A stretch of 63,295 bases of DNA, the filler included, from Sphacelaria rigidula (lineage: Eukaryota), in the NCBI GenBank assembly GCA_964200075.2. It is 4 parts of 4 records of this genome, joined end to end, with 100 filler letters (N's around TTAATTAATTAA, not from the genome) between each part and the next. Parts side by side here need not be neighbours in the genome. Positions count along the whole stretch, not along the records: positions 15,851 to 31,599 come from CAXNAA020001611.1; 3 more parts are not named here. One strand, given 5' to 3'. Both the position numbers and the translations under genes were made by a program. Positions 10,220-30,012 of the stretch are shown here, one piece after another. Under the pieces are notes generated by a model that saw only the letters and a program-made list of their open reading frames with translations, did no database searches and was not told the DNA's origin. Positions within the stretch are counted from its first letter, which is position 1. The number at the start of each line of letters is the position of its first letter.

Positions 10220-12727
10220 ATGCCAAGTGCTGGAGGGCAGCCCTGGCGTCAGGTGACTCTTGGGACCGAACAGGGTTCTTCGGCAGGCGTGGTACCTGTC
10301 GATCGCAAAGCTGAATGCTTACGCGCAGATTTAGCCTTGCCTCGCTCTGTAGGTTCGTTCATGGCCCGCGTTATTCTGGATTCTGGGTCCGCGCTCACGT
10401 CGATCGGTGTGGGGTTGCTGGAATATATGTCTTCGCAGTTTGGCGGCACTCAGCTTAAGAATCCGTTCGAAAACGGACCGCAAACGGCGCAGACCGCCAC
10501 CGGTGCTCCCGTGACGGTTACACACAAAGCGGTGCCAATTACTGTTGGCGTGTGTACGCCGTGGGGGGCTGTGCAGTCGCAGCCCATTACATTCGCTGTC
10601 ATGTCCGGTAGGGACAACGTGGTTGTGTTTGGGATGGCGACAATGAAAGAGCGCTGTGTCGATCGGGGGTGGGAATGTTTCATTAACCCAGCAGAGGAGA
10701 GAGGTTCAAGAAAATATGCGCTCGAGGATAGTGTGCGGCAGACCGAGCAGAAGGGCCTGAGCGCCGATGACTCACATTGTCTGCACGATATTTTGCCTCG
10801 TCACGTTGATACATTTCGTCGTGCGCTGTGTGGTGATCCGCCAGCGCGCGTGGAGCCAATGAAGCAGGCTGTGAAGGCCAAGCCTCGCCGCTGCGATCCG
10901 ATGAAGACCGTGTGGCTTGCTTCATGCATCGCAGATTTGGTGGCATCCGTTTTGTTGGTTAGGAATCATCATGCTGTGTGGGCGAGTCCGGTGATGGCGG
11001 CGCCGAAGAGGGACACATTCCGTTTGGTCAGCGACTATCAGGGGTTGAACACGAAAGTGGGACAGTCTCCGGGGGTGATGTCAAGCCAAGGAGACATGCG
11101 GGAGTTGCTGGAAGCCCAACAACAATATCGGTATGTCAGTGAACACATTCCTGGAGAGCGCATTTTTTGGGGAGATTTGTTGTCTCGCTTGGTGAAGGTT
11201 CCTACCGTGCCTCTTCGTTCTGTTGCCGAGTGCAGCCCGTGTGATGCCGATGATTCGCTGCCCTCGTTGGATGTCATTCGTACCACGCAGCGCGAAACAG
11301 TCGGCGACGGTGTTCATTCTTTTCCAACGACTTTCGGTCAAGCTACTATGGCTGACGATGGTTTGTTTCTCGTGCGTGTTGGCAGTAGTGATGTTTTCCG
11401 GATTCCGTCGGGTGACAAGGCTCTACAAACTCGCTTGATGGTGTGCGCTCAAATGCGGTCGGCTGGTCACCGTTGTGTGGCGCCGACTCTGTTTCGTTTG
11501 AAAGAATACTGTGTGTGGCCTCACATGGATTCCCACGCTCGAGAGTTCGTTCGCCAGTGTTTGCATTCTGGAGACACTCGTGCTGGTGAGACTGTACCTC
11601 GCCCGTATGGCGATACTGTGCATGGTACTGCGCCAGGTGAAGTTGTTCACTTTGATTTTCTATACGTCGGAGTAGCGGACCTGAAAGTGCTAATGGTTTG
11701 CCTGAGGAGGATGGTTTTCGGTACGTTTTGGTTATCATGGATGAATTATCCAGTTTCGTTTGCTTGGAGCCGAGCGAGGCTTGCACCACCGAGGTTACGG
11801 CTAAGCACTTGCTCCTTTGGCGCAAGACTTTGGGGATACCGCGTGTTTGGGTTAGTGATACCGCCACGCACTTCAAGAATCGAGTGATCGCGCAGCTGAG
11901 CGATGCGCTCAAGGTACAACATCAATTTGCTGTTGCGTATACCCTTGGTCGAATGGTCCTTGTGAACGCATGGCAAAATAGGTTATTCGTGCGTTGCGGT
12001 CTATTTTGTCGGAACAGCGACGGCCGGTGTCTGAATGGGTTGATGTTTTGCCAGCCGCTCAGTGCGCGTTGGATACTTCTTTTCGTGAACGCTACCGCTA
12101 CACTCCGTATTGTGTGAGGTTTGGGCGTGCGCCGCGTACAGCGTGCGCCGCGCTGACTTATATTACTGGCGGCGAGTGGAACGTCGATTTCATTGACGCT
12201 GATTCGTTGCGTGACAAGGTTGAGGGCGTGGTTGACGAGCAAGTCCGGTTTTGTAACGAAGTGCAAGCTGCTGTCGCGATGTCTCGCGAAACCAAACGCA
12301 AGCTTACTCAGGGCCAGGCTGTGTTGCCCAAGTTTGCAGTTGGCGATTTCGTTTTGTATGGCCGTGTTCGGAGGCAAGGCGTGAGAACATTGTTTCTGGC
12401 GCCGTGCACTCGGCCCATGTCGCTCGTTTGCGTTTCTATGCTGACTCGCAGTTGCACATCACTGCGGAACTAAAATATGTATTTCAGCATTCGTATGCTC
12501 AAGGTGAATGTCGGGTGAATGCTTTGGTGCACGTCGCTGAGGGTGACAATGGTGATGCCATTGTTTTGGTCGATTGGGAAGGCCTTGGTGCTGAAGAACG
12601 TACGTGGGAGTCTCTTCGCAAGATTCATTCTTCTGCGCCTGAATTTGTTTTGAAGGAACTGGGTGAACTGCGGTCGACTCTGGCGCTGACCAGTAAATTA
12701 GCGTCGCAGTATGGTATTTCTTTGTGA
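10220..12727 (+). pseudogene. Gypsy pol remnant: aspartic protease, truncated RT/RNase H, integrase, chromodomain
   Basis: VILDSGS (protease); WASPVMAAPKRDTFRLVSDY (RT N-terminus) joined almost directly to YVSEHIPGERIFWGDLLSR (RNase H end); GHR...FVRQCLH (integrase Zn region); HFDFLY, YVLVIMDELS and VSDTATHFKN (integrase core, frameshifted); VLVDWEGLGAEERTWES (chromodomain). Confidence 0.9.
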
Positions 12728-15750: not shown

Positions 15751-15850
15751 NNNNNNNNNNNNNNNNNNNNNNNNNNNNNNNNNNNNNNNNNNNNTTAATT
15801 AATTAANNNNNNNNNNNNNNNNNNNNNNNNNNNNNNNNNNNNNNNNNNNN
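15751..15850. other. Artificial linker/gap (N44-TTAATTAATTAA-N44)
   Basis: Identical 100-nt spacer at three evenly spaced positions, with stop codons in all six frames. Confidence 0.98.
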
Positions 15851-15979
15851 CACCGCCTACTGGAAGCCGGTAAGGTTTTCCAGGTATCTCACCACGAGAC
15901 CCCAACCTCCATGTGGAGACACTACGAGGGGGCGGCGAGCAAACACGGTGTGGTGGTGAAGAAGCGCGGGAAGTCGTGA
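15851..15979 (+). CDS. 3' end of a viral hypothetical protein (partial)
   Basis: Open frame from the segment edge (HRLLEAGKVFQVSHHETPTSMWRHYEGAASKHGVVVKKRGKS*) that stops just before the next ATG. Confidence 0.5.
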   Translation, partial: HRLLEAGKVFQVSHHETPTSMWRHYEGAASKHGVVVKKRGKS

Positions 15980-15988
15980 AAAATTTTA

Positions 15989-16312
15989 ATGTTTGTGAAA
16001 TCTCTTTTCGTCTGGTGCTGTCAAGTAGCCCTCGTCGGGGGCTATATCTCCCCGTTCAACCGTGCAAACTGTGCCAAGTACTCGCTAAACCCGACCCGCA
16101 AGGACGTCGCCGAAGACGTCCTAAAAAGAATCCCAAATGACGACCAAGGATTGGCCTTTTCGACGGCACGTTCGTGGTGCATGGAGCACAAATACGACTT
16201 CCTTGTCGACCTCGGATCTGTTTGTCGTGCTTCGGAGGGATTCCGAAACCAGGGGTGCAGCGGTAGGTACCCAATAGAGGCCTTCCTCGAGGACATATTC
16301 CTCAAAAATTAA
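15989..16312 (+). CDS. Small putatively secreted Cys-containing viral protein (107 aa)
   Basis: ATG after an AT-rich spacer; hydrophobic N-terminus MFVKSLFVWCCQVALVGG; fits the gene tiling. Confidence 0.65.
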   Translation: MFVKSLFVWCCQVALVGGYISPFNRANCAKYSLNPTRKDVAEDVLKRIPNDDQGLAFSTARSWCMEHKYDFLVDLGSVCRASEGFRNQGCSGRYPIEAFLEDIFLKN

Positions 16313-16326
16313 ATCGCAGTAATCCT

Positions 16327-17346
16327 TTAAAAATACACAGAAATTTTGGGCCAAACATTCACTTGCATTTCGCATTCATCATATTTACGTTCATCATTAT
16401 AGGTCCTTCGTCGTTCAGTCAATTCGGCGTTCACGCTGGCAGTAACTCTTACTCGAGGTGGGTCTTCTTCGGGGTCTTCTTTGTCTCCTGGGTCATGCAC
16501 GACCTTGATGTCCGTTAATGAATGCCGACCCGAGAGCAGGCGAGCAAGAAGATTGGCGGATGAGACGGCTTCTGGTACTCCAGAAAGTTGATACAGAGGT
16601 TTGTGTGTGTCTGGGACAGAAGCTTGTTCAATGTTCCCTTTGTTGAACACCACTTCGGCTGAACTGTGTGGACCTCTAATTTGAGTAATGGTTTCGACGA
16701 TTTGTGCAAGAAACCTGTGCAAAGTCACTCGGTGGAGGATGACCGGGACCAGATTTTTAGTCTGTATTTCAAGACGAGAATAGACCCGCTTCGAGTTGTG
16801 CATGAACGGGATGTCGTTATGGTTTCGTAGAACTTCGAGCAAGAAGTCGGAAACGTCCAGAGTCGAGCCGCCGGTGCCGAGTCCAACGTATTTCGTTCTC
16901 CCACCAAAATTGTCCGGGAAACGGAACACGTGGTGCCCGGTTGGGACACCCACTTTGAGACGGAAGGAGGAATCATGAGGGACCATCCTTAGAACGAATG
17001 CCCGAATCATATCGAACCTTTCGTCGTTGATTGCAATAGTAGCATTATCAGGAGTATGACCACCACCCCACAACATCGGAAGTCGCATAATCCAATTGAT
17101 GAAATCTGCAGAGAACGGAACGTTAACCATGCGTATGGGAGAATGCACAAAGACACTCCTCACAATGTGCAAAAATGCCATGTCCCTCGCTTGAGGATTC
17201 AACGTGCAGCATCCATGCGTGACATCGCTGGCATACTCTGGGCATCCCCCGTTGCTGTCGGGGTACTCTCTGTACACTCCCGTCGTGGACTCGCAGGCCG
17301 GCGGGAGGACTGCACGGACGCGATCTGGGTGGCTAGGCCTCACCAT
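16327..17346 (-). CDS. Viral hypothetical protein (339 aa)
   Basis: Long ATG-initiated ORF that tiles without overlap; no recognisable domain. Confidence 0.8.
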   Translation of the reverse strand: MVRPSHPDRVRAVLPPACESTTGVYREYPDSNGGCPEYASDVTHGCCTLNPQARDMAFLHIVRSVFVHSPIRMVNVPFSADFINWIMRLPMLWGGGHTPDNATIAINDERFDMIRAFVLRMVPHDSSFRLKVGVPTGHHVFRFPDNFGGRTKYVGLGTGGSTLDVSDFLLEVLRNHNDIPFMHNSKRVYSRLEIQTKNLVPVILHRVTLHRFLAQIVETITQIRGPHSSAEVVFNKGNIEQASVPDTHKPLYQLSGVPEAVSSANLLARLLSGRHSLTDIKVVHDPGDKEDPEEDPPRVRVTASVNAELTERRRTYNDERKYDECEMQVNVWPKISVYF

Positions 17347-17385
17347 CTGTGTAAATAATACTATCTACAAAACCCATATTATTAT

Positions 17386-17949
17386 TTACACAGACAGACA
17401 GTCGCTCTCGCACGCCTGGATGATGTCGTTCGTGATGTACTTCTCCCCGGCCTGGCCACTTGCCGTACGATCCGTGCAAATCTCCGTGAGACCATCGATT
17501 ATGGTGTCGAAGGCGTTCAGGACTTCATCCGGAACGTCGTCGGCCCTCTCGTTGGTGGGGTCGCGAAGGAGGTCAGAGATCATCGAGATGGCGTACAGCC
17601 TGCGGCTACAAGCGTCCTCGCCCACATGCTGGCAGTGTGCACAACCGTAGTCCCAGTCACCGAGAGACTTCAAGTATGGATCCACCTTGTTAAAGGTGAA
17701 GGGGACGGAAAACTCGTACTTCTTGTCTCCGATAGTGACGGCCGTCAGGTCTTCGCTCTCAAGCTCGAAGACGAGGTCGTCGTAGGCGACCTCAAAGCCG
17801 ATCCCAGGCAAGGGTCCGGAAGAAGCGTCGCGCCACTTCAGGGTGAAGGTGTCTCCCAGGCCTTTGACAGGGAGCTCATGGTTGTAGTAACAGGCACGGG
17901 CTCCGCCCAGCAGAAAAGGGAGAAAAGCTGTGGTCAGAAACTTCATCAT
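17386..17949 (-). CDS. Putatively secreted viral protein (187 aa)
   Basis: Probable start MMKFLTTAFLPFLLGGARA, which looks like a signal peptide with an A-x-A cleavage site; several Cys; divergent from the GT2 gene. Confidence 0.75.
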   Translation of the reverse strand: MMKFLTTAFLPFLLGGARACYYNHELPVKGLGDTFTLKWRDASSGPLPGIGFEVAYDDLVFELESEDLTAVTIGDKKYEFSVPFTFNKVDPYLKSLGDWDYGCAHCQHVGEDACSRRLYAISMISDLLRDPTNERADDVPDEVLNAFDTIIDGLTEICTDRTASGQAGEKYITNDIIQACESDCLSV

Positions 17950-18067
17950 TTCGTGCTTGGAGTTGCGATATTCTAGACAATCCACCTTTGTGTCTTGACA
18001 ATACATTTTTTGTTCACAAACATCCTGCAAAGTGTTACGTTGTTTGGTACTACTACTTTTACCTATT

Positions 18068-19666
18068 ATGGCCTACCCAGTACGCGGGATTTCAACATGC
18101 ACTTTCGTCACGGGGTATGTCGTGATGCTACTATTGATACTAGCTTGCTGCTTCCTCTACTCTCTGGGGACTTTCCGGAAGTTCTGGGGGATTTTTTACG
18201 TCACCGGGTACGGAGCTCTCTCTGTGTCCTACTACGTGGCAACAACCGTCTTCGCCTACCTCAACAGGAGATTCGCCAACACTAACGCCGAAAAGTGCAT
18301 GGAGGGCCACCTCGAAGAGAGTACTTTACCACCCGTGTCTGTCCACGTCGTCGGGTACAAAGAAGACCCAGACTACTTCCGGGCCTGCCTCGAGTCGGTG
18401 CTTGGACTTTCCTACAGGAACCTCAAACACGTTGTCGTTGTGGTAGATGGCAACGATGAAGACGACCGGTACATGGCAAACATAGCCAATGAAGTCTTTG
18501 GAGAAAACGTCATCTCCATCGATCTCGACTACATCCCAAGCGTCAAGGCACAGGAAGAGGCGTCAATGAGCCTTCCCTGCTGCAACTCCTTGGGAGTACA
18601 ACCGGGCCAGCCTTCGACGAGGTCCAGGTCGCCTCCCGTGTACGTCGTGACCCAACCCCACGCAGGCAAAAGGGAGGTCATCTACACGGCGTACCTCATC
18701 TCAAAAGCTTCGGAAGTAGAGTTCTTTGTCAACACCGACTCGGACACCATTCTGGACGAATACGCTGTGGACGAGCTCGTCTACATGGTGACTGACGAAG
18801 ACGTCAACGCCGTCGCCGGACGTCTGAAAATCTTCAACAAGAGCAACTGGCTCACGTACCTGACGGCGGCAAGGTATTTCATCGCTTTCAACATCGAGCG
18901 TGCTTCTCAGGGATACCACGGAGTCGTGGGGTGCATTAGTGGACCGTTAGGTCTCTATCGCATCGCGGCCGTGAGGCTTGTGGTGGGAGAATGGGTTTCC
19001 CAGACCTTCTGGGGGAAAAAGTGCACTTTTGGAGACGACCGCCACATGACCAACAAGCTTCTGTCCATCGGTGGCAGGATAATGTACACGCACAGGAGCT
19101 TCGCAGCGACTGAGACGCCCAGCAGCTACTCCAGGTTCGTCGCGCAGCAAACCAGGTGGTCCAAGAGCTACTGGCGCGAGCTCTACCTACAGAGTGGGTG
19201 GGCCACCAGGCACTGGTACCTCCTGATGGAGACAGTGTACGGGGTCCTTTTCCCCGTCCTGATCGTGGTAACTTTCCTCGCGGCTGTCTTCTCGCGGACG
19301 TGGTGGTCGCTGCTGGCGATCGCCGTCGTGACTTTTACCATGCCGCTACTGAGGTGTCTCGTACGTTACGCCATTTTCCATGTACTCAATAGGTGTCAAC
19401 AACCCTTGTCGGATGACGTCCCCTCCATCCATCGCTCTCCATGCGGCATCGTTTTCCTCGATTTCTCTGCACAACTCCATATCGCCCCCCATAAGACGAC
19501 AAAGTGTCTCTGCGGACTTCCTCCGAAAATCCCGCGAAGCCGACGTCGGGAGCACCCATCCAGAGACACACATCTCGTCTTACACCGTCGTCGAAAAGGA
19601 ACGAAGTTCTTGGTATTTTTCCGTGCCATGTTTCACATCCATCATCATCGTATACTCCGCTCTTGA
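18068..19666 (+). CDS. HAS: Class I hyaluronan-synthase-like GT2 glycosyltransferase; homology ends near 19360 (likely truncated)
   Basis: Motifs GYKEDPDYFRACLESV, VVDGNDEDDRYM, QPHAGKREVIYTA, DSDT, RYFIAFNIERASQ, CISGPLGLYR, CTFGDDRHMTN, TETP and QQTRWSKSYWRE, plus N-terminal TMs. The distal TMs and the WGT motif are missing. Confidence 0.85.
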   Translation: MAYPVRGISTCTFVTGYVVMLLLILACCFLYSLGTFRKFWGIFYVTGYGALSVSYYVATTVFAYLNRRFANTNAEKCMEGHLEESTLPPVSVHVVGYKEDPDYFRACLESVLGLSYRNLKHVVVVVDGNDEDDRYMANIANEVFGENVISIDLDYIPSVKAQEEASMSLPCCNSLGVQPGQPSTRSRSPPVYVVTQPHAGKREVIYTAYLISKASEVEFFVNTDSDTILDEYAVDELVYMVTDEDVNAVAGRLKIFNKSNWLTYLTAARYFIAFNIERASQGYHGVVGCISGPLGLYRIAAVRLVVGEWVSQTFWGKKCTFGDDRHMTNKLLSIGGRIMYTHRSFAATETPSSYSRFVAQQTRWSKSYWRELYLQSGWATRHWYLLMETVYGVLFPVLIVVTFLAAVFSRTWWSLLAIAVVTFTMPLLRCLVRYAIFHVLNRCQQPLSDDVPSIHRSPCGIVFLDFSAQLHIAPHKTTKCLCGLPPKIPRSRRREHPSRDTHLVLHRRRKGTKFLVFFRAMFHIHHHRILRS

Positions 19667-19715
19667 TTCTCTCTCGGATCCCATTTAGATCGTTCTCAGT
19701 GCACTCAAACCCCAT
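19346..19715 (-). pseudogene. Fragmented viral hypothetical gene colliding with the HAS 3' end
   Basis: Two overlapping minus-strand frames (MGFECTENDLNGIRERIK... and ...MELCREIEENDAAW...) read like one frameshifted protein. Confidence 0.35.
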
Positions 19716-19811
19716 ATAATTAGCCTTTGTTTCCGAGTATGAACCCAAGGAAACATTTTATGTTATACCATTTTGGCGCGGACGCACGCAGTCGTGTCGT
19801 GAAAGTACTGC

Positions 19812-20054
19812 TCAAATCTTGACAACCTTCGGTGCCACTACTTTGTCCATTTCTTGATGGTGGTGGCGCCCAGCATCCGGGCATCCGTGTTCGACCCTCT
19901 GTTTGTGCTTCATGCACACGTTCAACTTACAGGAACACAAATTGCGCTCAAATACCTTGAGAACCTTTCCGCAGACGACGCACTTGGTGCGCTGAGTGGG
20001 AGTCTTGAAAGGCTTGCAAGACTTCTTTTCGTCCGGCATTGTTGTTGCAATCAT
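19812..20054 (-). CDS. AN1-type zinc finger protein
   Basis: CVVC-x10-CSC-x4-CMKH-x5-HGC fits the zf-AN1 pattern, followed by a VVAPKVVKI tail typical of AN1 proteins. Confidence 0.85.
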   Translation of the reverse strand: MIATTMPDEKKSCKPFKTPTQRTKCVVCGKVLKVFERNLCSCKLNVCMKHKQRVEHGCPDAGRHHHQEMDKVVAPKVVKI

Positions 20055-20057
20055 ACT

Positions 20058-20817
20058 TTATATTTTGTCGAAGACTTCTTCACGAAAAAACCTGTAGAGG
20101 TTGATGGAATCGAGGATATCATCCAAAGCCCGGTGTGTGGCTGATGGTTTCGGTTTGTGTTCCAAAATGTCCGGTCTGAAACGTTTGGCGGTTTCCAAGA
20201 GCGTTGTGACGTCAACGTTCTTGTGGTTGAGGAACCTCTTGAGGGCTGGGAAATGCGTCACGAGGAATCCTCTGTCGAAATGAACGGTGGACCCCGCGAG
20301 CAAAACCAGTCTGTGCGGGGTTTTCGAAGAGTATGCCGTGTACGACACGTCGTAGTTGGTGAGGTTCAGACCGTTGGCTCCCGCCGTCTTGTCGAAGAAC
20401 TGCCTGTCGTGTTTCTCCGGGCGTCCTTTCCCGACTTCGTGCGAGGAGTAGTATTCGAAGAAGTTCCAAAGCATGAAGGTCGCGTCTTCGTGCGTAGTGT
20501 TGGAGAAGTGGCATTCGTCAAACAACCCGTTGCCGCCGTACGAGGTCGAGCAGAACTTTTTTTGCACCACGAGGAAGACTGAAGCATCAAGATATTCATG
20601 GGGTGGTGAATGACGACGTGCAGCGAATCCCAGGGTTCGAGGTTCGCGTCCGTCACGACGATGTTGACCTCGAGAACCTCTGCGACGCGGGATCCAGGCC
20701 GGACGTCTCCATGTCAATCCAGAACCATGGGTTGTACCTGTCGTAGTCCCTCGAGATCTGCTTGTTGGAAATTTTCGGTTGTCGGGGTTGAGACTCGTGA
20801 CTCTCCTCCGTAGCCAT
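20058..20817 (-). pseudogene. orn: Oligoribonuclease (Orn/REXO2, DEDDh) with two frameshifts
   Basis: WIDMETSGLDP, then VLEVNIVVTDANLE, then LAGSTVHFDRGFL, VDVTTL and HRALDDI are spread over three frames. Apparent 1-nt deletions lie near 20679 and in the A7 run at 20557-20563. Confidence 0.88.
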
Positions 20818-20917
20818 AGCTTTTTCACAACAACTCTCAAGCATGAAAATTCATGTGACCTGAACGCGAATAAATATGTTAAGTCATGATCAAATAAATT
20901 GTCGGAGCTCTTTCACC

Positions 20918-21715
20918 ATGACCTCCAAGAAATGGAGACCGAACAGCTCTGGGGAGAAGCCTTTGAGCGCCGCGTTCTGTGTGAGAAAGTCTAAGTTGCA
21001 CCCCAAGTATCGGAAGGTTTTTTCGGAGAATACTGTTTTAGTACTCCGGCAGAAAGCAAGGTCTGCGGGCACGAAGGGTTGGTATTCCCTTAGAAAGGGT
21101 CACTTGGCGAGCGCCATCATCATTCACGAAGCGGCGGTCACGGTCACCGGCCTGTTTCACAGGATCGTGGACGCGAAGAGAGCCGAGGTTTACGAGTCTC
21201 ACGTGAGGAACGGTTCCAGTTGCCCGATCAGCCTCACGCTCGTGGCTGAGCTGAAGAAAGACGACGTTTTCGTTCATGGTGGAATTGTCTTTTCAAAAGA
21301 ATCGTTGCTGGACTACATGGAAGCTTCCGTAGACTTCCGGAACCCTGTCACTCGCAACATGATGCACCTGTACGACATCGAGCGGCTGGGTTGTCCGTAC
21401 GTGCTGGATAAGTACAGGAACCGAGAGCGGTTGCGAATCATCAAGGTCAACTCCATTCGACAGTTTTCGTTCTTGGAAACCGAGCTGGAGAACATCCTCT
21501 TCACTCTCATACAACACTACTACAGCAACGACCACGACTTCTTCGCCGACACCATCAGAGCCTTTCAGCAGACGTGGAGAGAAAAGAGAACCACCGACCG
21601 CCACAGGACGATCTGCGTGCTCCGGTCTCTGAAACATCGCGTAAGGAGGTACCAGGGGAGACCTCGTATCTGGGCCAACAACATACTCAACAAGTACATC
21701 GGTAAAACCATCTAA
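20918..21715 (+). CDS. Viral protein with a U-box-like domain
   Basis: CPISL...GIVFSKESLLDYM...NPVTR is a U-box/RING-like pattern lacking metal ligands; basic N-terminus. Start could be 20876. Confidence 0.7.
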   Translation: MTSKKWRPNSSGEKPLSAAFCVRKSKLHPKYRKVFSENTVLVLRQKARSAGTKGWYSLRKGHLASAIIIHEAAVTVTGLFHRIVDAKRAEVYESHVRNGSSCPISLTLVAELKKDDVFVHGGIVFSKESLLDYMEASVDFRNPVTRNMMHLYDIERLGCPYVLDKYRNRERLRIIKVNSIRQFSFLETELENILFTLIQHYYSNDHDFFADTIRAFQQTWREKRTTDRHRTICVLRSLKHRVRRYQGRPRIWANNILNKYIGKTI

Positions 21716-21721
21716 AACCAT

Positions 21722-22258
21722 CTAAAACACCATCTTGAACTTCCCGCTGTACGTCTTGGTGTTGTACTTGGGGTTCTTCGCGCGACAATGCTTCCCCTTC
21801 TTGGAAGTCGACTCCGCGGCCTTCATGTGGTCCTCGACGACGCCCTTGTTCTCTTCGAGGAAGAAATTGACGCCGTTCTTCAAGAACCACCGGAAGAAGT
21901 TCAACTGTCCGACCGTCGAGCTGCGGACTTCTTTCCCGAGGATTGTGATGGAGATCTTGTTCTTTCGGGCAAACGGGTCCATGTTGCGCTTGTTGTACGC
22001 GGAGAGGTTCTTCTGGTAGTCCCTGTTGAGGTCGCGAGGGACGCCCCCCGTCTCCAGCACAACCGACTTCGTCTTGCTGTAGTTCGTCACCAACCAGTCG
22101 ATCACACGCAGACTCATCCCGTTCTTGCGTTTGACGATGGAAAGAAAAGCCTCGACCCTCACCATGTCCTCGTTGTACCACTCCAATACCGAGTCCAAGA
22201 GAACTTCGTCGGATTCGGAGAGACCTTCCGTCGACTTGCACCCGATGAAAGTAGACAT
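21722..22258 (-). CDS. Conserved uncharacterised Nucleocytoviricota protein (178 aa)
   Basis: Motifs SLRVIDWLVTNYSK, Y.K..MDPF.R and STVGQLNFFRW, which I recognise from a widespread giant-virus family. Confidence 0.85.
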   Translation of the reverse strand: MSTFIGCKSTEGLSESDEVLLDSVLEWYNEDMVRVEAFLSIVKRKNGMSLRVIDWLVTNYSKTKSVVLETGGVPRDLNRDYQKNLSAYNKRNMDPFARKNKISITILGKEVRSSTVGQLNFFRWFLKNGVNFFLEENKGVVEDHMKAAESTSKKGKHCRAKNPKYNTKTYSGKFKMVF

Positions 22259-22367
22259 TGACGAAGATCCGCTGAACTGAGATCCGGCGGAGTAATGGTA
22301 ACAACCAAAGTGTACGTTCTACTTTCAACCACAAAATATACCCGGAGCATTAAACGTGAAACGTCTT

Positions 22368-23348
22368 TTAGTCCTTCACGGGCGCTATGACAAACATCAG
22401 GGTTCCTATGGACAGCTCGTACCTCAGGATAAGAGGGTACTCGTTTTTTAGGAAGATCTCCACGTTTTGGTCGACCCCGACTCGACCGAACTTTTCGAGG
22501 TAGCGCACGATGAACTTCCCCTCGATGTTACCAATGTCTTCGCTGTGCTTCCAGTTGAGACCGGATGCCGTGGGGAGTATGGTGATGTGACTCGTGGCAA
22601 CTTCCCCATCAGCGATGAACTCTAAGGTCTTCCTCGTGCCCCTCACCGTGACGTACTTACTGATGAATACCATTTCTCGAACATGCTTGGCAAGCTCAGA
22701 GCTCGGCATGGAGCCGATCCTATCGTACTCCACGTGCGGGATGCTGATGTCCACCTCGTCTAGATCGAGGAGCTTGATCTTGTTCACCGTGTGCGTCCTG
22801 CGCTCGCTGTTGGAGAGTTGGATGTGCATTTCGTGTGGTTGATCCTCGTAGATTCTCCACTCCATGAGGTCGCCCGTGGTGAGACTCCGTATCAAGCGGT
22901 AGAGGAATCCAATCTTGATCCCCGCGATGACCGTCCCTAGCGAGTAGAAGTACTCGACGTGGTTGATGACGAGGTGTACCATCGCGACGTTTCCGGGGTC
23001 GATAGAAACCAGTCGGATACCCTTCCCTTCGATGAACTCCATGTTGACCTCTGTGAGGAGTTCTTTCAGGCACTCGAAGAGGCTCTTGAACGAGATGCAC
23101 TGAGAAGTCTTCATCAGCACCAGCAGCTTGCGTCCGTCGTGCAGCGGTTGTTGTTTTTTCTCCAGTTTTTCGTCGTCCCCGTCGCGCAAGGGTTGTTTCA
23201 TCTTCTTCAGTTGTTCTTCGTCTGCGTGTTCTTCGTCTGCGTGTTCTTCGTCTGCGTGTTCTTCGTCTGCGTGTTCTTCGTCTGCTGATTTGTTGTCAAC
23301 GTCGTCCATGTGGTGATCCACCACTCCATCATCGTGCACTCTACTCAT
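22368..23348 (-). CDS. PCNA: Viral PCNA (sliding clamp) with an acidic N-terminal extension
   Basis: FKSLFECLKELLTEVNMEF, GIRLVSIDPGNVAMVHL, KLLDLDEVDISIP, MPSSEL, RYLEKF and YPLILRY...LMFVIAP follow the PCNA pattern. Confidence 0.95.
   Translation of the reverse strand: MSRVHDDGVVDHHMDDVDNKSADEEHADEEHADEEHADEEHADEEQLKKMKQPLRDGDDEKLEKKQQPLHDGRKLLVLMKTSQCISFKSLFECLKELLTEVNMEFIEGKGIRLVSIDPGNVAMVHLVINHVEYFYSLGTVIAGIKIGFLYRLIRSLTTGDLMEWRIYEDQPHEMHIQLSNSERRTHTVNKIKLLDLDEVDISIPHVEYDRIGSMPSSELAKHVREMVFISKYVTVRGTRKTLEFIADGEVATSHITILPTASGLNWKHSEDIGNIEGKFIVRYLEKFGRVGVDQNVEIFLKNEYPLILRYELSIGTLMFVIAPVKD
23213..23285. repeat. 15-bp coding tandem repeat (ADEEH x4-5) in the PCNA leader
   Basis: GTTCTTCGTCTGCGT repeated. 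Confidence 0.9.
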
Positions 23349-23371
23349 CCCTGTTTATTTGTACTTTGGTG

Positions 23372-23428
23372 GTGTGCTGACGTTGTGTGCTGACGTTGTG
23401 TGCTGACGTTGTGTGCTGACGTTGTGTG
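23372..23428. repeat. 13-bp tandem repeat x4 just upstream of PCNA
   Basis: GTGTGCTGACGTT repeated four times. Confidence 0.9.
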
Positions 23429-23782
23429 GGTTTGGGCGGCAAAAGGTAATAGTTTATTTTAGTGTAAACCCCTATTGTTTGGTTCAAATCAGGCCAAACC
23501 AAAATCACTCTCATGTCGGTCACAAAAAATGAATCAACCCAAGCGCATGCACAGCACCTCGAGAGTGAGTCTCACGAGAGAGCGTTCGACTTCTTCCGAG
23601 GAAAAGAAGGCATCAGCGTCGACTGAGTCAAGCTCCAGGTATACGGAAAACATTGTGTGCCAGAGGAATTCCCAGGTGACGACACCATCAAAAACTTAGC
23701 GGCCATCTTTCGACGACTCCCCACAGGTGATATTCTTCGTCAATGTTGCCCGTGTTAAATTCTAACCTGTAATTAAACAATA

Positions 23783-24229
23783 ATGCCGACCCCATCCGTC
23801 GCCGTAGTCGACGACACCTGCAGAGCCGCCTGCAAGTCCATGAAGCTCTTGTCTAAACAATTGCTGATTCTCAGCTCGTCCTACGCAAAACTTCCGTTCG
23901 AAAGGTCTGGGGATGAGATAAACCAAGTTCTATCCGTCACCATGTCGTCTATACAAAAGATACAGGAAGCCCTCACCGAGGCAGCTTCAAAAATGAACCA
24001 AGACCTCAAACTAGAAGATCTCGTGCATCCGGAATTCCCCGAGACTGTTCTCGTCACCGTCAAAGAATACACTCTCCTCAACGCTGTTTTCCAAGAGTAT
24101 ACAGAGAACGTTGTGAGCTCGTCCAAGAGTTACTCGCTTTTTTGTCGAGACTATGATATATGCTCCGACGCTCGCGAGAAATCTTTGAAGCCATGCCAGG
24201 ACAACGGAGAGAAATCGAAAGAAAGCTAG
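23783..24229 (+). CDS. Viral hypothetical protein (148 aa; possibly the N-half of a frameshifted gene with 24160-24633)
   Basis: ATG after an AT-rich spacer; helical composition; 70-nt out-of-frame overlap with the next ORF. Confidence 0.6.
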   Translation: MPTPSVAVVDDTCRAACKSMKLLSKQLLILSSSYAKLPFERSGDEINQVLSVTMSSIQKIQEALTEAASKMNQDLKLEDLVHPEFPETVLVTVKEYTLLNAVFQEYTENVVSSSKSYSLFCRDYDICSDAREKSLKPCQDNGEKSKES

Positions 24230-24633
24230 AAAAACTTCCCGAATCCTTCACGGCGGAAGAGATCGAGAATATGTACAAAAAACTGGTCGCCGATATCGCC
24301 TTGTTGGAGCAGCAAGAAGTCCCTCAAAAAGTTGCCGAGGCTGAGCTACACAAGAGACACCAAACGTCGGCATACAGTTACCCGACAATCTTCTTCAAGG
24401 CGGTGAGGGGGGAGATGGACCAACATATCTTCGACACCCTCATTAAACTCAAGCGCAAATTCGATTCCGGTGAAATCGACGATAAGAGGGCCAAAGAGCT
24501 CGTGATCGACGGCGCCAAGCGACACGTCGAAGGGGAGGCTCCGAGGGCTCCTAAATCTGCACCCAAGCAGGGTGGTTCCGTGCAAGAGATAACTCTCAAG
24601 TGTCGCGTAGAAGACGAAGAATCAAAGCCCTAA
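24160..24633 (+). CDS. Viral hypothetical helical protein (157 aa)
   Basis: YPTIFFKAV...IFDTLIKLKRKFDSGEID...AKELV resembles a small conserved giant-virus family. Confidence 0.7.
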   Translation: MLRRSREIFEAMPGQRREIERKLEKLPESFTAEEIENMYKKLVADIALLEQQEVPQKVAEAELHKRHQTSAYSYPTIFFKAVRGEMDQHIFDTLIKLKRKFDSGEIDDKRAKELVIDGAKRHVEGEAPRAPKSAPKQGGSVQEITLKCRVEDEESKP

Positions 24634-25073
24634 GGCCTCTTAGGGTTAGGGTTCATCCACAGCGTCTCGCTCATCCCGATGGAAACAGCGGCATTCTTCT
24701 TCTTTATCATGTCGGAACCATCATCCTCTGAACATCTTGTGTTGAACCAGACTTCGTCCAAAAACTTCGCCACAATCGTCGCTCTCACGTACACCGGGAG
24801 TCCACGCGGGTATTCTCTTGTCTTGAACCTCATCAGATTCACGAGGTCTATCGGGTTTGCAACGCCAAACTTCTCCTTCAAGTGTTTCGCGAGCCTGCCA
24901 CCTATTCCCGGAACTCCCCTGGTGGTAAAGAAGCGGTCGATGGGTGTTCGTATAAATTTTTGCACCCTGGCTTGGTTGAACGTTCTGGGTTTCGCGCAGG
25001 CGAAGAAATGGACTTCGTCTTCGGAAACAAAGTTCCACTCCGGCACCCGCTTCAAAACCCGTTGAAATTGCAT
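24630..25073 (-). CDS. Helix-hairpin-helix DNA-binding protein, BAF (barrier-to-autointegration factor)-like
   Basis: QKFIRTPIDRFFTTRGVPGIGGRLAKHLKEKFGV aligns by eye to BAF [32 protein letters not shown]. The HhH call is solid; the BAF call is tentative. Confidence 0.6.
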   Translation of the reverse strand: MQFQRVLKRVPEWNFVSEDEVHFFACAKPRTFNQARVQKFIRTPIDRFFTTRGVPGIGGRLAKHLKEKFGVANPIDLVNLMRFKTREYPRGLPVYVRATIVAKFLDEVWFNTRCSEDDGSDMIKKKNAAVSIGMSETLWMNPNPKRP

Positions 25074-25162
25074 GTCAAAAGAGAGTGGGACGAGGGTGCA
25101 GGACGTCGTGACAAAATGCGTCGTATGTTACTGACAAATAATTTTTCAGTGTTGAAGCATTT

Positions 25163-25684
25163 TCAAACATTTTCACCATGTTCCGAGATTTCGGCTTGTA
25201 CAATAGACCACACCGGATCGTCACGAAACGGCATCTTTCGGGGAGGTTTTTCTTCGTTGGCATACGACGAGGAAACTACTCTACCGTTGTCGTGTAGGAC
25301 TCCGTGGCCGAGCATCTCTAGGGCGAGGGCAATTTTTAGGATGTCTTTCCTCGAGAAAAACGACAGTTTTAGAGTCACGATACCTAAGCGATCCTGGTAC
25401 ACCGTATTCGTTGAACCCGATTCGATTACAGAAATCGTGGGCCTCACTACCGCGCCGTTGCCTACCTCGATCACGCCTTTCTTGTCGATCCTCGACGGCC
25501 CCAGAAATCTCACGACGCTTGCGGAGAAGTCTGCGTGGTCCGCGGGGGAGTATTTTCCTTGCTTACCGATGAACTTGAGGTAGAATTGGACGACCGATTC
25601 GTCGCTCTCACACCAAGCCTTCTTCCACAGACGCCATTTTGACATCCACTCCACGTAGATCTCGTCGTTGAAGCCGGGATTCAT
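25163..25684 (-). CDS. Viral hypothetical protein (173 aa)
   Basis: ATG-initiated ORF that fits the minus-strand gene run. Confidence 0.7.
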   Translation of the reverse strand: MNPGFNDEIYVEWMSKWRLWKKAWCESDESVVQFYLKFIGKQGKYSPADHADFSASVVRFLGPSRIDKKGVIEVGNGAVVRPTISVIESGSTNTVYQDRLGIVTLKLSFFSRKDILKIALALEMLGHGVLHDNGRVVSSSYANEEKPPRKMPFRDDPVWSIVQAEISEHGENV

Positions 25685-25720
25685 CTTCTTGAGATATTTA
25701 CAGCAGACATATTATCTTCT

Positions 25721-26362
25721 TCAGATACTCTCCAACCGGTCAGCGAGTTCGCGCAGTTGCTTGACCACGTCTGCAATGTCTGCAATGTTAGATACTGATT
25801 CTTCTACTTCTTCCGCATCCTCCTCAAAATTGACTTTCTTGGATGCTTTCTTGAAAGCTTTCTTGGATGCTCTCTTGGATGCCTTCTTGGTTGTAGGACT
25901 ACTAAACACTGAAGATGTAGACGACAAGGCCGATCGGGAAGCCACGTGCGATGATGCTGTCGCCGTGGAATTCCGTGAAAGCTGCGAAAACTGCGAAAAC
26001 TGCGAAAACTGCGAAGACTGCGAAGACTGCGATGATACAGAATCTGAAGTGTCTGACAAACTTTGCTTACCGGACGGCTTCTTTTTCTTTCCCTTCTTCT
26101 TCTTCTCTCCGGGCTTCGATATGATTATTTCCTTGAAGTTCAGGAGCGTTTTGTTGCGACTGAGGAGTTTTTTTAGTATACGAACCTGTTCCGGAGTAAG
26201 ATCATCGTAGACGTAAACACATTCCATGTCCAAGTCTTCGTTTAGGGGAGCCGTCTTCTCCACAAAGTGGTCAGAAAACATCTTGAGGACTTTCGCGACT
26301 GATTTGTCGACATCGTCGCTCTTCTTGAAAATCGCATCGCACACTACGCGAACACAAGTCAT
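25721..26362 (-). CDS. Viral protein with Lys-rich, Ser/Gln-repeat and KKAS-repeat tracts (213 aa)
   Basis: KKKKGKKKKP; (SQF/SQS)n from a 9-bp repeat at 25982-26030; KKASKRASKKAFKKASKKVNF. Confidence 0.75.
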   Translation of the reverse strand: MTCVRVVCDAIFKKSDDVDKSVAKVLKMFSDHFVEKTAPLNEDLDMECVYVYDDLTPEQVRILKKLLSRNKTLLNFKEIIISKPGEKKKKGKKKKPSGKQSLSDTSDSVSSQSSQSSQFSQFSQFSQLSRNSTATASSHVASRSALSSTSSVFSSPTTKKASKRASKKAFKKASKKVNFEEDAEEVEESVSNIADIADVVKQLRELADRLESI

Positions 26363-26676
26363 CTCTCAGATTTAACATGAACAAACATATTTTTCGAAGC
26401 TCAGCGAACCATGCGTCCAGAAACCAAAATTCAAAATGTTTGGCACCAGACAAACAACGAGCTGATCTGTCGAGATGAGTTCTACTGATCTGTCCACCTC
26501 GGAACTGTGCGCGTTGATTTCAGGAGGATTTGTGGTCGCTGGGTCACAGTGCGTGGTCGCGATAGAGTGCGCAGGGAAAGCTGAGTGCGAAATGATTGCT
26601 GTCGAGTCTGTCACCTCAGAAGAGGAGCCCGAGAAACTCCTGGAAAAGCTTTCGAAGGCAGTGTCTGAACCATCCA

Positions 26677-26932
26677 GTGGTCTGACCGTCACCGTGTACG
26701 GCATATGCGGCGGGATTCATGGGAAGTCGCAGCACTCGTAGATGGTTCTAAATATTCTATTCGGCGTTGAGACGGCTGAAGAGTCCACGGTTCGGATTTG
26801 CGTCAAAAATCTGTGGTCTGACCGTCACCCTCCCCGGGCCAATCGGCGGGATTCGCAAGTCGCAGCACTGGTAGATGGTTCTAAATATTCTATTCGGCGT
26901 TGAGACGGCTGAAGAGTCCACGGTTCGGATTT
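26677..26932. repeat. ~120-bp direct tandem duplication (26677-26799, 26813-26932)
   Basis: The 3' ~60 bp (GTAGATGGTTCTAAATATTC...CACGGTTCGGATTT) are identical in both copies; the 5' halves have diverged. Confidence 0.9.
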
Positions 26933-27074
26933 TTTCTGTTCCAAAAACAAATTATTTGCTCTCATTAGCCTGAAAAATCCAGATCCACGAAAGTGTGAAA
27001 TTTGGTCGCTACTTTATTTCGTCACTCCTCCCCTTCCTGCTCTTACTTCCCCACCCATCACGGACCTCAACTCA

Positions 27075-27755
27075 TTGGCCGCTCAATGTAAAAATGAAGC
27101 GTTGACGGAACAATTGGTCGCCGCAAGTACTGAGGAAGGAGGAGGAGAAGAAGTCGTAGACGATGAGCAAGACGTGAACGCAGAAGTTGGACAAGGCGAA
27201 GAAGAAGACGAGGAGGAAGACGAAGAAGAGGAGAAAGACGAAGAAGACAAAGAGGAGGAAGACAAAGAATACGAGAAGGAAGAGGAAGACGAGAACCAGG
27301 GAGACCAAGCCGGCGAAGAAGACGAAGAAGATGAGCAAGAAATGGAAGGGCTTCTCGACCAGGATACCGTGGCTCAGGCGGCTTTTTCCGACTCGGATAA
27401 TGCGTCGTCTGCGTCGCCAAGATGTGGGGCCAACACAGCGCCGTCGCCAAGATGTGGGGCAACCACAGCGCCGTCTGCGAGAACGGTCCAGGTGCAGCGC
27501 GCCAGGAGCAGCGGCGGGAGGGTCGTTGTTTCAGTTTCTCCCGTGTACACAAGATGTGATGAAGACGAGATCAGCAGGAACCGAGCTTACGAGGCTGGTA
27601 AATGTGTCGACGTGGAGCGGAAGTTCCTCAGCGAGACCTCAAAGTCAAAGTCGCCTAAGCCGGCGACAAGCAACCCTTCTTCTCGGCCCTCCAAGAGGAA
27701 GAAGGCCCCTGAGTGTCATGGTGCTCGTTGGGACGATGACGATTCGTCTCCGTAG
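27075..27755 (+). CDS. Highly acidic (poly-E/D) viral protein with a basic C-terminal patch; ATG start apparently lost
   Basis: 226-codon frame with a long E/D tract and RPSKRKK. It begins at C-ATTG-GCC, one base away from ATG-GCC, and has an internal 30-bp duplication near 27412-27475. Confidence 0.6.
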   Translation: MAAQCKNEALTEQLVAASTEEGGGEEVVDDEQDVNAEVGQGEEEDEEEDEEEEKDEEDKEEEDKEYEKEEEDENQGDQAGEEDEEDEQEMEGLLDQDTVAQAAFSDSDNASSASPRCGANTAPSPRCGATTAPSARTVQVQRARSSGGRVVVSVSPVYTRCDEDEISRNRAYEAGKCVDVERKFLSETSKSKSPKPATSNPSSRPSKRKKAPECHGARWDDDDSSP

Positions 27756-27907
27756 GTAGTTTTTGTTGTTTCTATGTTGTATATCTTGTTCAGTTATTGT
27801 TTCGACTCCTAGCGGTCAGTTCGTTGTCGTGTTGTTTCTATGTTCGTCAGTTTTTATTGTGTTTTTTCTGTGTTACGGGTAGTTAAATTTCTTCACAAAT
27901 TATTTTG

Positions 27908-28429
27908 ATGTCGGATCCTCTCTCCGTACCATACCCTTCCATGCTTCACCAATCGAAGTCTTTCACTTCCGCGAGTTGCGGGAAGATTGTCCACAAGAAT
28001 GCAAACTATGTCGCACTCGGGCAGGAAGTATCGAACGCATCGTACGTCCACGATACCTCGACGAACACCTCGACTGAAATCGTTCGCGATCAAGTTGCGA
28101 TGGACCCGACTGGGGATTCCGCCTCGATGTCACTCGGTGTCTTGCACGAGTCGGCCTCGGGAGGAGTCAAAACAATTCAACCCATAATGACAACCACGTC
28201 GGATGCGACAACCGTCACTTCCCTCAACGCCGACTCGGTTTTCAACCTCACGTTAGACGGGAGCATCTCGTGGGACAGTGACGATGCTTGTCTTTACCTC
28301 TCCTCGAACAAAGCGTTTCGTTTCCACTACGTGGAGTCCGATGGAATCACGGCATCGCGACTCGTGTTGGAGGGTCTTGATGAATCCTCCGGGGCGTATA
28401 TGCCCAAGGTGGAGTTCTCCACCGACTGA
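27908..28429 (+). CDS. Viral Ser/Thr-rich, beta-strand-like hypothetical protein (possibly structural)
   Basis: ATG-initiated, 173 aa; C-terminal ISWDSDDACLYLSSNKAFRF...RLVLEG...KVEF. Confidence 0.75.
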   Translation: MSDPLSVPYPSMLHQSKSFTSASCGKIVHKNANYVALGQEVSNASYVHDTSTNTSTEIVRDQVAMDPTGDSASMSLGVLHESASGGVKTIQPIMTTTSDATTVTSLNADSVFNLTLDGSISWDSDDACLYLSSNKAFRFHYVESDGITASRLVLEGLDESSGAYMPKVEFSTD

Positions 28430-29043
28430 TAGGATTCCTCCGACCAAAACACAATGTACGTCTTGGCAACCTCGTACGCGAACGTCGCCTTGGCAACTTC
28501 GTTCTTCTTTAACTTAGCGTTCTTCTTCCTCGAGCAGCATTCCAAAACAAACTCAACATATTTGGCGTCAAACTCGTGCCACCCTGATATTCGTATCCCG
28601 AAGTCTTCCGAATCACACACCGTGGAGACGGCGCGGAAGACGTCGTCTTCCTGTATCGACGAAATCTTCAGGTGAACTGAAGACACCAGCGGAACCAACG
28701 ACTTGATGTTGACGGTCGCAGAGTCTGTGTCGACGGAGTACTCCACGTGAAAAAACTGGACGATACAGCCTATTGGAATCAACGAGTCATAAAGGTCTTT
28801 CACAGACGATTCCGCGTCGTGACAGATGATACGCGCCTCGTGGATGAAAGACCTGTATCGCCGCAAGTACTTCATTTTCGATACCGTCAGACAATTCGGC
28901 GGGTACGATAGAGACACCACGTGTACTTCGGGAACTTGTCGCGGTCTAGCACTTGGAACGTCCGGAACTTTCGGTATGGTTGTCCGAAAAGCGCGCGCCG
29001 TCTTCTTGAACTCATCGTCACACTCGGTCCGCTCAACCTCCAT
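28327..29043 (-). CDS. Viral hypothetical protein (238 aa)
   Basis: ATG-initiated ORF; its 3' end overlaps the convergent gene by ~100 nt, so the true stop may have been lost. Confidence 0.65.
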   Translation of the reverse strand: MEVERTECDDEFKKTARAFRTTIPKVPDVPSARPRQVPEVHVVSLSYPPNCLTVSKMKYLRRYRSFIHEARIICHDAESSVKDLYDSLIPIGCIVQFFHVEYSVDTDSATVNIKSLVPLVSSVHLKISSIQEDDVFRAVSTVCDSEDFGIRISGWHEFDAKYVEFVLECCSRKKNAKLKKNEVAKATFAYEVAKTYIVFWSEESYQSVENSTLGIYAPEDSSRPSNTSRDAVIPSDST

Positions 29044-29112
29044 TGCAAACAGCGTTGTGCAATTTGTGTAAGATTAAAAACCACCCCAACCCTGGCCAAG
29101 ACATGCTAAAAT

Positions 29113-29580
29113 TTAATCTTCTGAGCTAAACCGCAAGCGACGCTTGTCAACGTCAGCCTTAGAGATTCGATCAAGAGTCCGCTTCAGGATCCTCTTCCGT
29201 GAAAAGTGCCCTCTCCTGTTTGAGATCCGCTTCTGTTCACTGCCCAAAAACGAAACTGCCTTGTCGATGCACGTCTTTTTCAGCTCGTCCGAGACGGGTT
29301 CCCTCGTCAAAGGGTGAGAATTCGACTTGGTCATCCACGACAGCAAGTGTCGCGAGTCGAACGCCATCCCATCCACCACCACGAAAACCAAGCGTGGGAT
29401 ATGTGACACGGGCTGCAGCATGATACATTCGTCGTCCATTGCATTCGAGCAAGACTTCTCGTACCTACTCTTCAAGTACCGACGAAAACACCTCTGAATT
29501 CTTGATGCCGATCTTCGGTACGTGTCCTTCGAGTGCGCCCTTTGACTTCGCTTCATGCGTCGACGCCTAGGACCTCTCAT
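29113..29580 (-). CDS. IQ-motif plus U-box-like protein (155 aa)
   Basis: ASRIQRCFRRYLK (IQ-like) followed by ECIMLQPV...GMAFDSRHLLSWM...HPLTREPV (U-box-like). Confidence 0.75.
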   Translation of the reverse strand: MRGPRRRRMKRSQRAHSKDTYRRSASRIQRCFRRYLKSRYEKSCSNAMDDECIMLQPVSHIPRLVFVVVDGMAFDSRHLLSWMTKSNSHPLTREPVSDELKKTCIDKAVSFLGSEQKRISNRRGHFSRKRILKRTLDRISKADVDKRRLRFSSED

Positions 29581-29612
29581 TCTTAGGTTCTCTCATGAGT
29601 CAGCGCATCATT

Positions 29613-29975
29613 TTAAATCCCATCCCCGGTCCACGGATCCCTCGCCAACGAAGTCATCACCCCGAAAAAGACGTCCAACAACATGAGGTACGGGACGAAC
29701 TCGGATCGACCTGCAACCAAGCAGAAGACGATCTTCGAAGATAACACCAGGTGGAACTTCTGTGACCACCAGATCTCGTTTGAACTGTTCAGACCTAGGA
29801 TGTTGAGGTACACAGAAAGTAGAGATACGCTCAACACAATTCCTTGAACCCAAAGGAACGAATACGTACGATAAACCAAGTACGCCAAGAGGAGCCTCAG
29901 CGGAACACATACGCCGTAAAATAACTTTTTCCTCTGACTCGGAGTCGCCCCTGCACTTTCGACAACTCCAGGCAT
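29613..29975 (-). CDS. Small multi-pass membrane protein (120 aa)
   Basis: Probable ATG at 29975; three to four hydrophobic segments. Confidence 0.7.
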   Translation of the reverse strand: MPGVVESAGATPSQRKKLFYGVCVPLRLLLAYLVYRTYSFLWVQGIVLSVSLLSVYLNILGLNSSNEIWWSQKFHLVLSSKIVFCLVAGRSEFVPYLMLLDVFFGVMTSLARDPWTGDGI

Positions 29976-30012
29976 GGTTGAAACTTGGAATCTTCTGGTC
30001 TCAGCATAGATA

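Follow-up and report, generated by a model that had tools for sequence, protein, structure and literature searches.

Hyaluronan synthesis by viruses has been demonstrated experimentally for the chloroviruses only, and its purpose there is unclear (PMC10583209). A WGTSGRK/R gating loop (WGTRG in the chlorovirus enzyme) has been recognized as the fifth canonical motif of the hyaluronan synthases (HAS) and is needed for synthesis. In Xenopus HAS1 this loop occupies residues 485-503, between interface helix 3 (IFH3) and transmembrane helix 5 (TMH5), and synthesis is abolished by the substitutions W491A and R496A, as it is by W454A/F and G455A in chlorovirus HAS (PMC11750622). The glycan genes described for the phaeovirus EsV-1 are a chitin-synthase-class glycosyltransferase of family 2 (GT2), a sugar-nucleotide dehydrogenase and an alginate epimerase. 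The present analysis concerns a stretch of 63,295 nucleotides from the assembly GCA_964200075.2 of the brown alga Sphacelaria rigidula (hereafter the window), and within it an open reading frame (ORF) at 18068-19666, plus strand, which a preliminary description had presented as a HAS-like gene in a phaeovirus-like genome. This ORF very probably holds the first 82% of a class I HAS-like gene from the accessory block of a phaeovirus-like element, a gene that was cut at about nucleotide 19378, would no longer support polymerization and lies in decaying viral DNA.

The ORF listing and translation gave an uninterrupted frame of 532 amino acids (aa) from ATG to stop. The protein carries YKEDPDY, DGNDEDDRYM, GKRE, DSDT, AFNIERASQ, CISGPLGLYR, FGDDRHMTN and QQTRWSKSYWRE, so that all the motifs quoted in the preliminary description are present, but the series is not the full one it had announced, as the WGTSGRK/R gating loop is absent (PMC11750622). 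Compared with PDB sequences by phmmer, the protein matched Xenopus HAS1 (8smm, E 4e-69) and chlorovirus HAS (7sp7, E 1.1e-64), and at E≤0.001 five distinct PDB sequences were matched, each of them a HAS. DSDT, FGDDRH and QQTRW are invariant in 19 relatives and align to the same motifs of the solved HAS. In Pfam the protein falls into GT2 families, with Glyco_tranf_2_3 at 6.6e-16 and a partial Chitin_synth_2 match at 1.1e-12, and 329 proteins were recovered in the main protein search at E≤1e-10. Vertebrate HAS are 35-40% identical to the protein, as befits a homologue and not the wording very close to HAS2 that had been claimed, and chlorovirus HAS are 30-33% identical. The ORF is thus a genuine class I HAS-like GT2 gene.

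The gene is not whole. With the intact relatives P0003 and P0004 as tblastn queries, the window was matched from 18068 to 19378 only (codon 437), and when the final 85 residues of five relatives were aligned locally with the three forward frames of 19330-19960, the upstream stretch was recovered and nothing beyond the break. Intact relatives measure 488-621 aa; the near-full-length ones cover 76-82% of the window ORF and then continue for about 72 residues that the window copy is without. The gene model P0002 (438 aa), drawn for the same contig, likewise stops at the break. Residues 18-508 of P0003 align to residues 49-535 of Xenopus HAS1, gating loop included, and the window homology ends at P0003 residue 441, approximately Xenopus residue 468, before the end of IFH3. 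According to alignment and hydropathy, most of IFH3, the gating loop (WGTSSRK in the relatives) and TMH5 have been lost. What remains, by homology to the intact relatives, are codons 1-437 (18068-19378, plus strand), with the N-terminal transmembrane region, the GT-A domain, DSDT, GDDR, QQTRW, IFH2 and TMH3-4. A read-through tail of 95 codons plus the stop (19379-19666, plus strand) follows, with no match to the relatives, no WGT motif and no hydrophobic segment. The window copy is probably inactive, because its gating loop is gone and the published loop mutants are dead, and the candidate undescribed system of the preliminary description is not borne out as a working one by this copy, devoid of both loop and following helix.

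The 532-aa protein might instead be complete and active, with a C-terminus specific to its lineage, as the frame stays open for 95 codons beyond the break and the conserved part is without flaw. This is very unlikely, given that the tail bears neither a gating-loop motif nor a hydrophobic segment and that the loop is kept in 18 of the 19 relatives and is indispensable in the Xenopus and chlorovirus enzymes (PMC11750622). The tail is, moreover, the antisense strand of a convergent ORF (19386-19757, minus strand) whose stop codon sits 8 nucleotides past the break and which, by alignment, is the homologue of a conserved ORF of Feldmannia species virus (FsV). Even less credible is a fusion of two loci by the assembler. 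The assembly is highly fragmented and consists here of size-sorted contigs of about 15.7 kb, but independent Logan contigs of runs X1 and X3 bridge the junction. A 7,353-nt contig of X1, which may be the source sample, crosses 17300-20900, and a 503-nt contig of X3, a run on another sample of this organism, extends over 18918-19420, both with 0 differences. The break at 19378 is therefore not an assembly error.

As to how the 3' end was lost, replacement of the HAS tail by a mobile nuclease finds no support in repeats, none being present at both sides of the junction, nor in Pfam, where no nuclease match was obtained for the downstream ORF 19386-19757 or its FsV homologues. In the FsV record the homologue of this ORF is present twice, in inverted copies separated by about 200 bp (6973-7077 and 7292-7396), a hint that a repeated or mobile gene lies where the HAS gene lost its tail.

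The intact relatives constitute a small HAS-like family that apparently has no earlier description. P0003-P0020 are 58-83% identical to the window ORF, P0021 is 47% identical, four partial sequences are about 320 aa long, and the remaining proteins stay at or below 44%. In the alignment of 19 relatives (A1), 130 columns are invariant, including the N-terminal membrane GYG, G-Y-x-E-D-P, Q-P-x-x-G-K-R, T-D-S-D-T, F-G-D-D-R, Q-Q-T-R-W-S-K-S-Y-W-R-E and, likewise, the acceptor collar (R-Y, A-F-N, C-x-S-G-P). All the elements named in the structural descriptions of HAS (PMC12987647, PMC11750622) are conserved in this family. In 18 of the 19 relatives 36-50 residues come after WGTSSRK and include one hydrophobic segment, and hydropathy and alignment indicate that the proteins end after TMH5, without TMH6. 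After the same loop, chordate, fungal and other giant-virus proteins continue for 78-131 residues, mostly with two hydrophobic segments, and NodC-like proteins have none. The relative P0020 (466 aa) departs from the family just before the gating loop and looks frameshifted; damaged copies thus recur.

Two trees were built, both from sets of sequences other than eukaryotic or viral chitin synthases. A quick tree of 63 rows left out the near-duplicate or truncated loci L004, L009, L011, L012, L015, L023 and L026 and seven of the 19 relatives. The careful tree of 43 rows comprised the window ORF, eight of the 19 relatives, 11 chordate and fungal proteins, nine HAS-like ORFs from IMG/VR, five NodC-like proteins and nine other representatives, after L006, L013, L014, L019, L025, four relatives, three named proteins and eight representatives had been further dropped. 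In it the HAS-like ingroup was separated from the NodC-like outgroup (100/99), and the family of the window ORF formed a clade (100/98) inside the ingroup. Its nearest neighbours were three short-tailed proteins (99/91, 100/97), followed by proteins from IMG/VR giant-virus contigs (90/89). The chlorovirus-type clade stood apart (100/99) and joined the family in 0 of 200 bootstrap trees; the backbone among the chordate, fungal, chlorovirus-type and family clades was not resolved.

The product of such enzymes has to be weighed separately. The polymer of the intact family would most likely be hyaluronan, the alternative being that its members make chitin or chito-oligosaccharides from UDP-GlcNAc alone, like the chitin synthases of chloroviruses and EsV-1 or like NodC. 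This second possibility deserves to be kept in mind, although it appears the less probable of the two. HAS enzymes are kin to chitin synthases and able to extend chitobiose (PMC12987647), and EsV-1, itself a phaeovirus, bears a chitin-synthase-class gene (PMC5122149). The only NCBIfam models matched by the window ORF were NodC and PgaC, but the NodC scores (TIGR04242 equivalog; 160.1 bits for the window ORF, 170.7 bits for P0003) are far under the curated cut-off of 550. The Chitin_synth_2 match (47.9 bits) is confined to residues 215-368, which correspond to profile positions 200-374 of 527 and fall short of a full-length chitin synthase, and this Pfam model also picks up HAS (PMC5122149). 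Searched against the PDB, the A1 family profile gave E 1.1e-111 for Xenopus HAS1 and 3e-95 for chlorovirus HAS; cellulose synthases came next, at 0.08-0.11, and no chitin synthase was among the matches at E≤1. The residues for UDP-GlcA and acceptor (H and K of PHxGKRE, DSD, F-GDDR, QQTRW, the following Arg and the CISGP switch loop) vary little or not at all within the family, although most of them are common to chitin synthases and therefore do not discriminate. The EsV-1 enzyme groups with the fungal chitin synthases, with HAS as outgroup, and is thus a different gene (PMC5122149). With significant PDB matches of its profile to HAS only and a place inside the HAS-like ingroup against a NodC-like outgroup, the family appears HAS-like, as the preliminary description had proposed, and probably not chitin-synthase-like.

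The window is made of four contigs (15,750, 15,749, 15,748 and 15,748 bp) whose neighbours are not physically linked, joined by spacers at 15751-15850, 31600-31699 and 47448-47547 (44 N, TTAATTAATTAA, 44 N). The phaeovirus-like genome of the preliminary description therefore shrinks to the contig at 15851-31599, the only piece shown to be phaeovirus-like, and the window as a whole represents four unrelated contigs. The PCNA gene of this contig (22368-23348, minus strand), which anchors the assignment, encodes a protein 73% identical to the PCNA of FsV and 64-66% identical to the copies in the Pylaiella and Ectocarpus genomes, and 20085-28426 is collinear with the complete FsV record of 154,641 bp over at least eight ORFs. 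The backbone genes thus resemble those of a sequenced phaeovirus most closely and keep their order. Genes for a major capsid protein or a polymerase were not found on the contig.

Several signs point to decaying viral DNA. An exonuclease gene (RNase T-like; 20085-20769, minus strand) is a pseudogene in which the intact 250-aa ORF of FsV is spread over three window frames by two frameshifts, both shift sites being covered by X3 contigs, and the neighbour of HAS, a small secreted protein discussed below, has lost a conserved cysteine. Since these two lesions occur together with the severed HAS gene, the contig may be regarded as a decaying viral element, most likely an endogenous one of the sequenced organism.

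A different origin can be imagined for the HAS block itself, namely a cellular locus of the brown alga in which nucleotide 19378 would be a virus-host junction left by a phaeovirus that inserted into a HAS-like gene of its host. The synteny with FsV ends at the break, and HAS, its secreted neighbour and a 339-aa ORF beside them are absent from FsV and have no close relatives in IMG/VR. In addition, the sole named relative is annotated in a brown-alga genome, that of Sphacelaria rigidula; this annotation does not show a cellular origin, because brown-alga genomes are full of phaeovirus insertions. Against a host locus stands the arrangement of three uninterrupted ORFs 40-120 bp apart, a density of viral style, when brown-alga nuclear genes are rich in introns. 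The G+C content at third codon positions is alike in HAS (0.725), the secreted partner (0.731) and PCNA (0.716), a viral backbone gene, and the nearest identifiable relatives of the family are found on giant-virus contigs of IMG/VR, where DNA polymerase B is encoded close by. A host origin is thus improbable.

Some observations weigh against a disabled gene in an endogenous viral element and should be set beside the evidence above. The retained 437 codons contain neither stop nor frameshift, and 0 of the 122 family-invariant positions are altered; the gene was probably cut not long ago, unless some constraint still acts on what is left of it. By our own estimate a 95-codon open tail has about a 1% chance in random sequence, although this may reflect the antisense of a real gene. 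NodC-type enzymes of the outgroup stop at or soon after WGTR, without a further hydrophobic segment; because such enzymes end that early, loss of the helix alone is no proof of inactivity, and the argument rests on the loss of the loop. Concerning the viral nature of the relatives' contigs, those bearing HAS share no size with those bearing PCNA homologues, save for one cross-source pair that looks like chance. As regards endogenous status, no host gene and no integration junction occur on the 15.7-kb contig.

Divergent from HAS lies the gene of the small secreted cysteine-rich protein (17386-17949, minus strand, delimited by alignment with relatives). Its frame is open up to 18006, and the likely start, according to the alignment, is a Met pair before the hydrophobic signal, which leaves a divergent intergenic region of about 118 bp (17950-18067) between the two starts. 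The predicted product of about 187 aa has a short N-terminal hydrophobic stretch, next to it an invariant Cys, and eight conserved cysteines that include C-A-H-C-x-H; in the window copy Gly replaces Cys at a column invariant in 20 other sequences. The hydrophobic stretch was considered as a stand-in for TMH6, an idea that was dropped, as the stretch is short, has small residues between it and the invariant Cys and, in our judgement, looks like a cleaved signal peptide. No significant match to the partner was found in the PDB (best E 0.26, a lectin) or in Pfam (best 0.017).

Only 20 homologues of the partner were found among 5.8 billion proteins, and nine of these are on contigs equal in size and source to the contig of a HAS relative (61,625, 9,919, 9,767, 26,565, 7,062, 3,208, 121,042, 6,427 and 6,323 bp). 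The 3.2-kb contig is so small that the two genes must be adjacent on it. The remaining 11 partner homologues and 10 HAS relatives are mostly on contigs of 0.8-7.7 kb, and the pairing count stays at nine. Pairwise identities of partner and HAS in 10 pairs varied together (Spearman 0.80 over 45 comparisons, which are not independent). The partner was found neither beside the other HAS-like genes fetched, nor in IMG/VR, nor in FsV. Judged by these co-occurrences, the HAS family is paired with the partner gene, and the missing last helix and this private, predicted secreted partner set the family apart from other HAS.

The accessory block is completed by the 339-aa ORF (16327-17346, minus strand), for which no Pfam, PDB, FsV or IMG/VR match was obtained. 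Between its start and the stop of the partner, at 17346-17394, is an AT-rich inverted repeat of 19 nt, 95% complementary around a loop of 11 nt. The 339-aa ORF, the partner and HAS are all absent from the FsV record, in which the positive controls, DUF7197 and a thaumatin-like gene, were found.

These elements can be assembled into a tentative scheme. The window gene was severed near nucleotide 19378, hard by the 3' end of the convergent backbone gene, after which the frame continues by chance through 95 unrelated codons; the encoded remnant could still bind the membrane and perhaps UDP-sugars, without polymerizing. In the intact family, a membrane synthase with one C-terminal helix fewer than vertebrate and chlorovirus HAS would be expressed, together with the small disulphide-rich secreted protein, from a shared divergent promoter. 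The synthase would draw on host UDP-sugars to extrude a polymer containing GlcNAc from the host cells in which virus is produced. A bolder proposal, possible yet doubtful at present, is that a lineage of brown-alga giant viruses possesses a working two-gene module, a five-helix HAS with a vertebrate-type loop and a secreted partner found nowhere else, through which virus-producing cells make hyaluronan, the window holding a recently disabled copy. The partner would then bind, organize or trim hyaluronan.

The supply of precursors bears on this scheme. Neither a UDP-glucose dehydrogenase nor a GFAT gene, the linked genes named in the preliminary description, was present among the ORFs scanned on the contig 15851-31599. 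The survey of precursor genes doubled as a method check: two of five giant-virus loci examined have such a gene beside the HAS-like gene, namely GFAT in L016 (11668-13452), a chlorovirus-type locus, and UDP-glucose dehydrogenase in L002 (4740-5876). The difference from the contig is of the kind expected if the family made chitin. The loci nearest to the family (L003, L005 and L007) showed no precursor gene among ORFs of at least 200 aa. An active family enzyme would rely on UDP-sugars of the host, and brown algae possess these precursors.

The preliminary supposition that HAS is not a standard phaeovirus gene is upheld by its absence from the complete FsV record. Similarly, the family-invariant motifs had no match in two phaeovirus-like IMG/VR records of 335,593 and 199,675 bp, the larger of which we take to be EsV-1. 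No close relatives of the HAS ORF, the 339-aa ORF or the partner were found in IMG/VR, where a search with the family alignment gave relatives at 26-36% identity only. In JGI metagenome contigs the relative P0018 found no match, and the family alignment led to 80 retained loci, none of them above 42% identity. As the preliminary description had also suspected, no report of a HAS gene in phaeoviruses or brown algae was found in full-text searches of the literature. The term "hyaluron" is absent from the main text of two recent papers on endogenous viruses and genomes of brown algae (PMC11890097; 10.1101/2024.02.19.579948).

If the scheme is right, the family would be a second, independently placed viral HAS lineage, and comparison of the two could help to explain why giant viruses cover cells with polymer. 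Such a lineage, carried by latent, integrating viruses of multicellular hosts, would differ in its number of helices and in having a secreted partner of its own. A further question would be whether hyaluronan-like material is present in the tissues of brown algae, hyaluronan not being known from stramenopiles. The window copy, truncated in decaying viral DNA, would serve as a marker of the family and not as a working system.

Other features of the window complete the picture. To the right of the convergent ORF lies an 80-aa ORF (19812-20054, minus strand) with a weak AN1-zinc-finger-like match (E 0.004, below the Pfam cut-off). A DUF7197 gene (21722-22258, minus strand) with 59% identity to the one in FsV belongs to the collinear backbone. 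The PCNA ORF has tandem repeats of 15 nt and 13 nt (23197-23316 and 23360-23428) at its 5' end and upstream of it, through which the open frame reaches 326 aa, about 40-65 aa more than the 261-290 aa of PCNA relatives, and imperfect 9/12-nt repeats of the GAAGAAGAC type at 27138-27346 encode an acidic, Glu/Asp-rich stretch in an ORF of the collinear block. At the right end of the contig, a thaumatin-family ORF (30016-31113, minus strand) has a homologue 53% identical (E 3.4e-117) at a distant place in FsV, so a thaumatin-like gene apparently belongs to the phaeovirus repertoire. For pieces 1, 3 and 4 the largest ORF of each was compared with FsV, and none of the three had a match. Piece 1 carries a 555-aa ORF (10220-11887, plus strand) with a retroelement-like integrase H2C2 zinc-binding domain, which suggests that the assembly is eukaryotic and does not represent a virus only. 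Scans of the window for tRNA genes and Rfam families returned no matches.

Among described systems, NodC and the NodC-like prokaryotic GT2 enzymes share superfamily and motifs with the window ORF and provide its best NCBIfam model, yet the score (160-171 bits against a cut-off of 550), the outgroup position (100/99) and a chain that stops at or soon after WGTR keep them apart. The "ESV-class" chitin synthase of EsV-1, with its adjacent UDP-GlcNAc 6-dehydrogenase (PMC5122149; PMC9614988), is also a processive GT2 of a phaeovirus with integrated copies, but it clusters with the division-2 chitin synthases of fungi, HAS being the outgroup (PMC5122149). It is set apart from the family by this description, and no named EsV-1 protein occurs in the best 120 matches of the window ORF. 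The chlorovirus HAS (PBCV-1 A98R type; CvHAS structures 7SP6-7SPA and 8SNC-E) likewise represents a class I HAS fold in a giant virus, with the same catalytic motifs, but it forms its own clade (100/99) apart from the family; its loop is WGTRG followed by about 105 residues, whereas the family has the vertebrate-type WGTSSRK and 36-50 residues, and GFAT adjoins HAS in the chlorovirus-type locus where the family has the small, putatively secreted protein. The vertebrate HAS1-3 (Xenopus HAS1, 8SMM-8SMP) are the best sequence match of both the window ORF (4e-69) and the family profile (1e-111), and they share with the family a near-identical gating loop (WGTS-RKKIV) and the GLYG-like, DSDT, GDDR and QQTRW motifs. 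They differ by having TMH6, which is missing from the family, and the family lies, to judge by the window copy, in a viral context. In the window copy the loop and TMH5 are missing as well.

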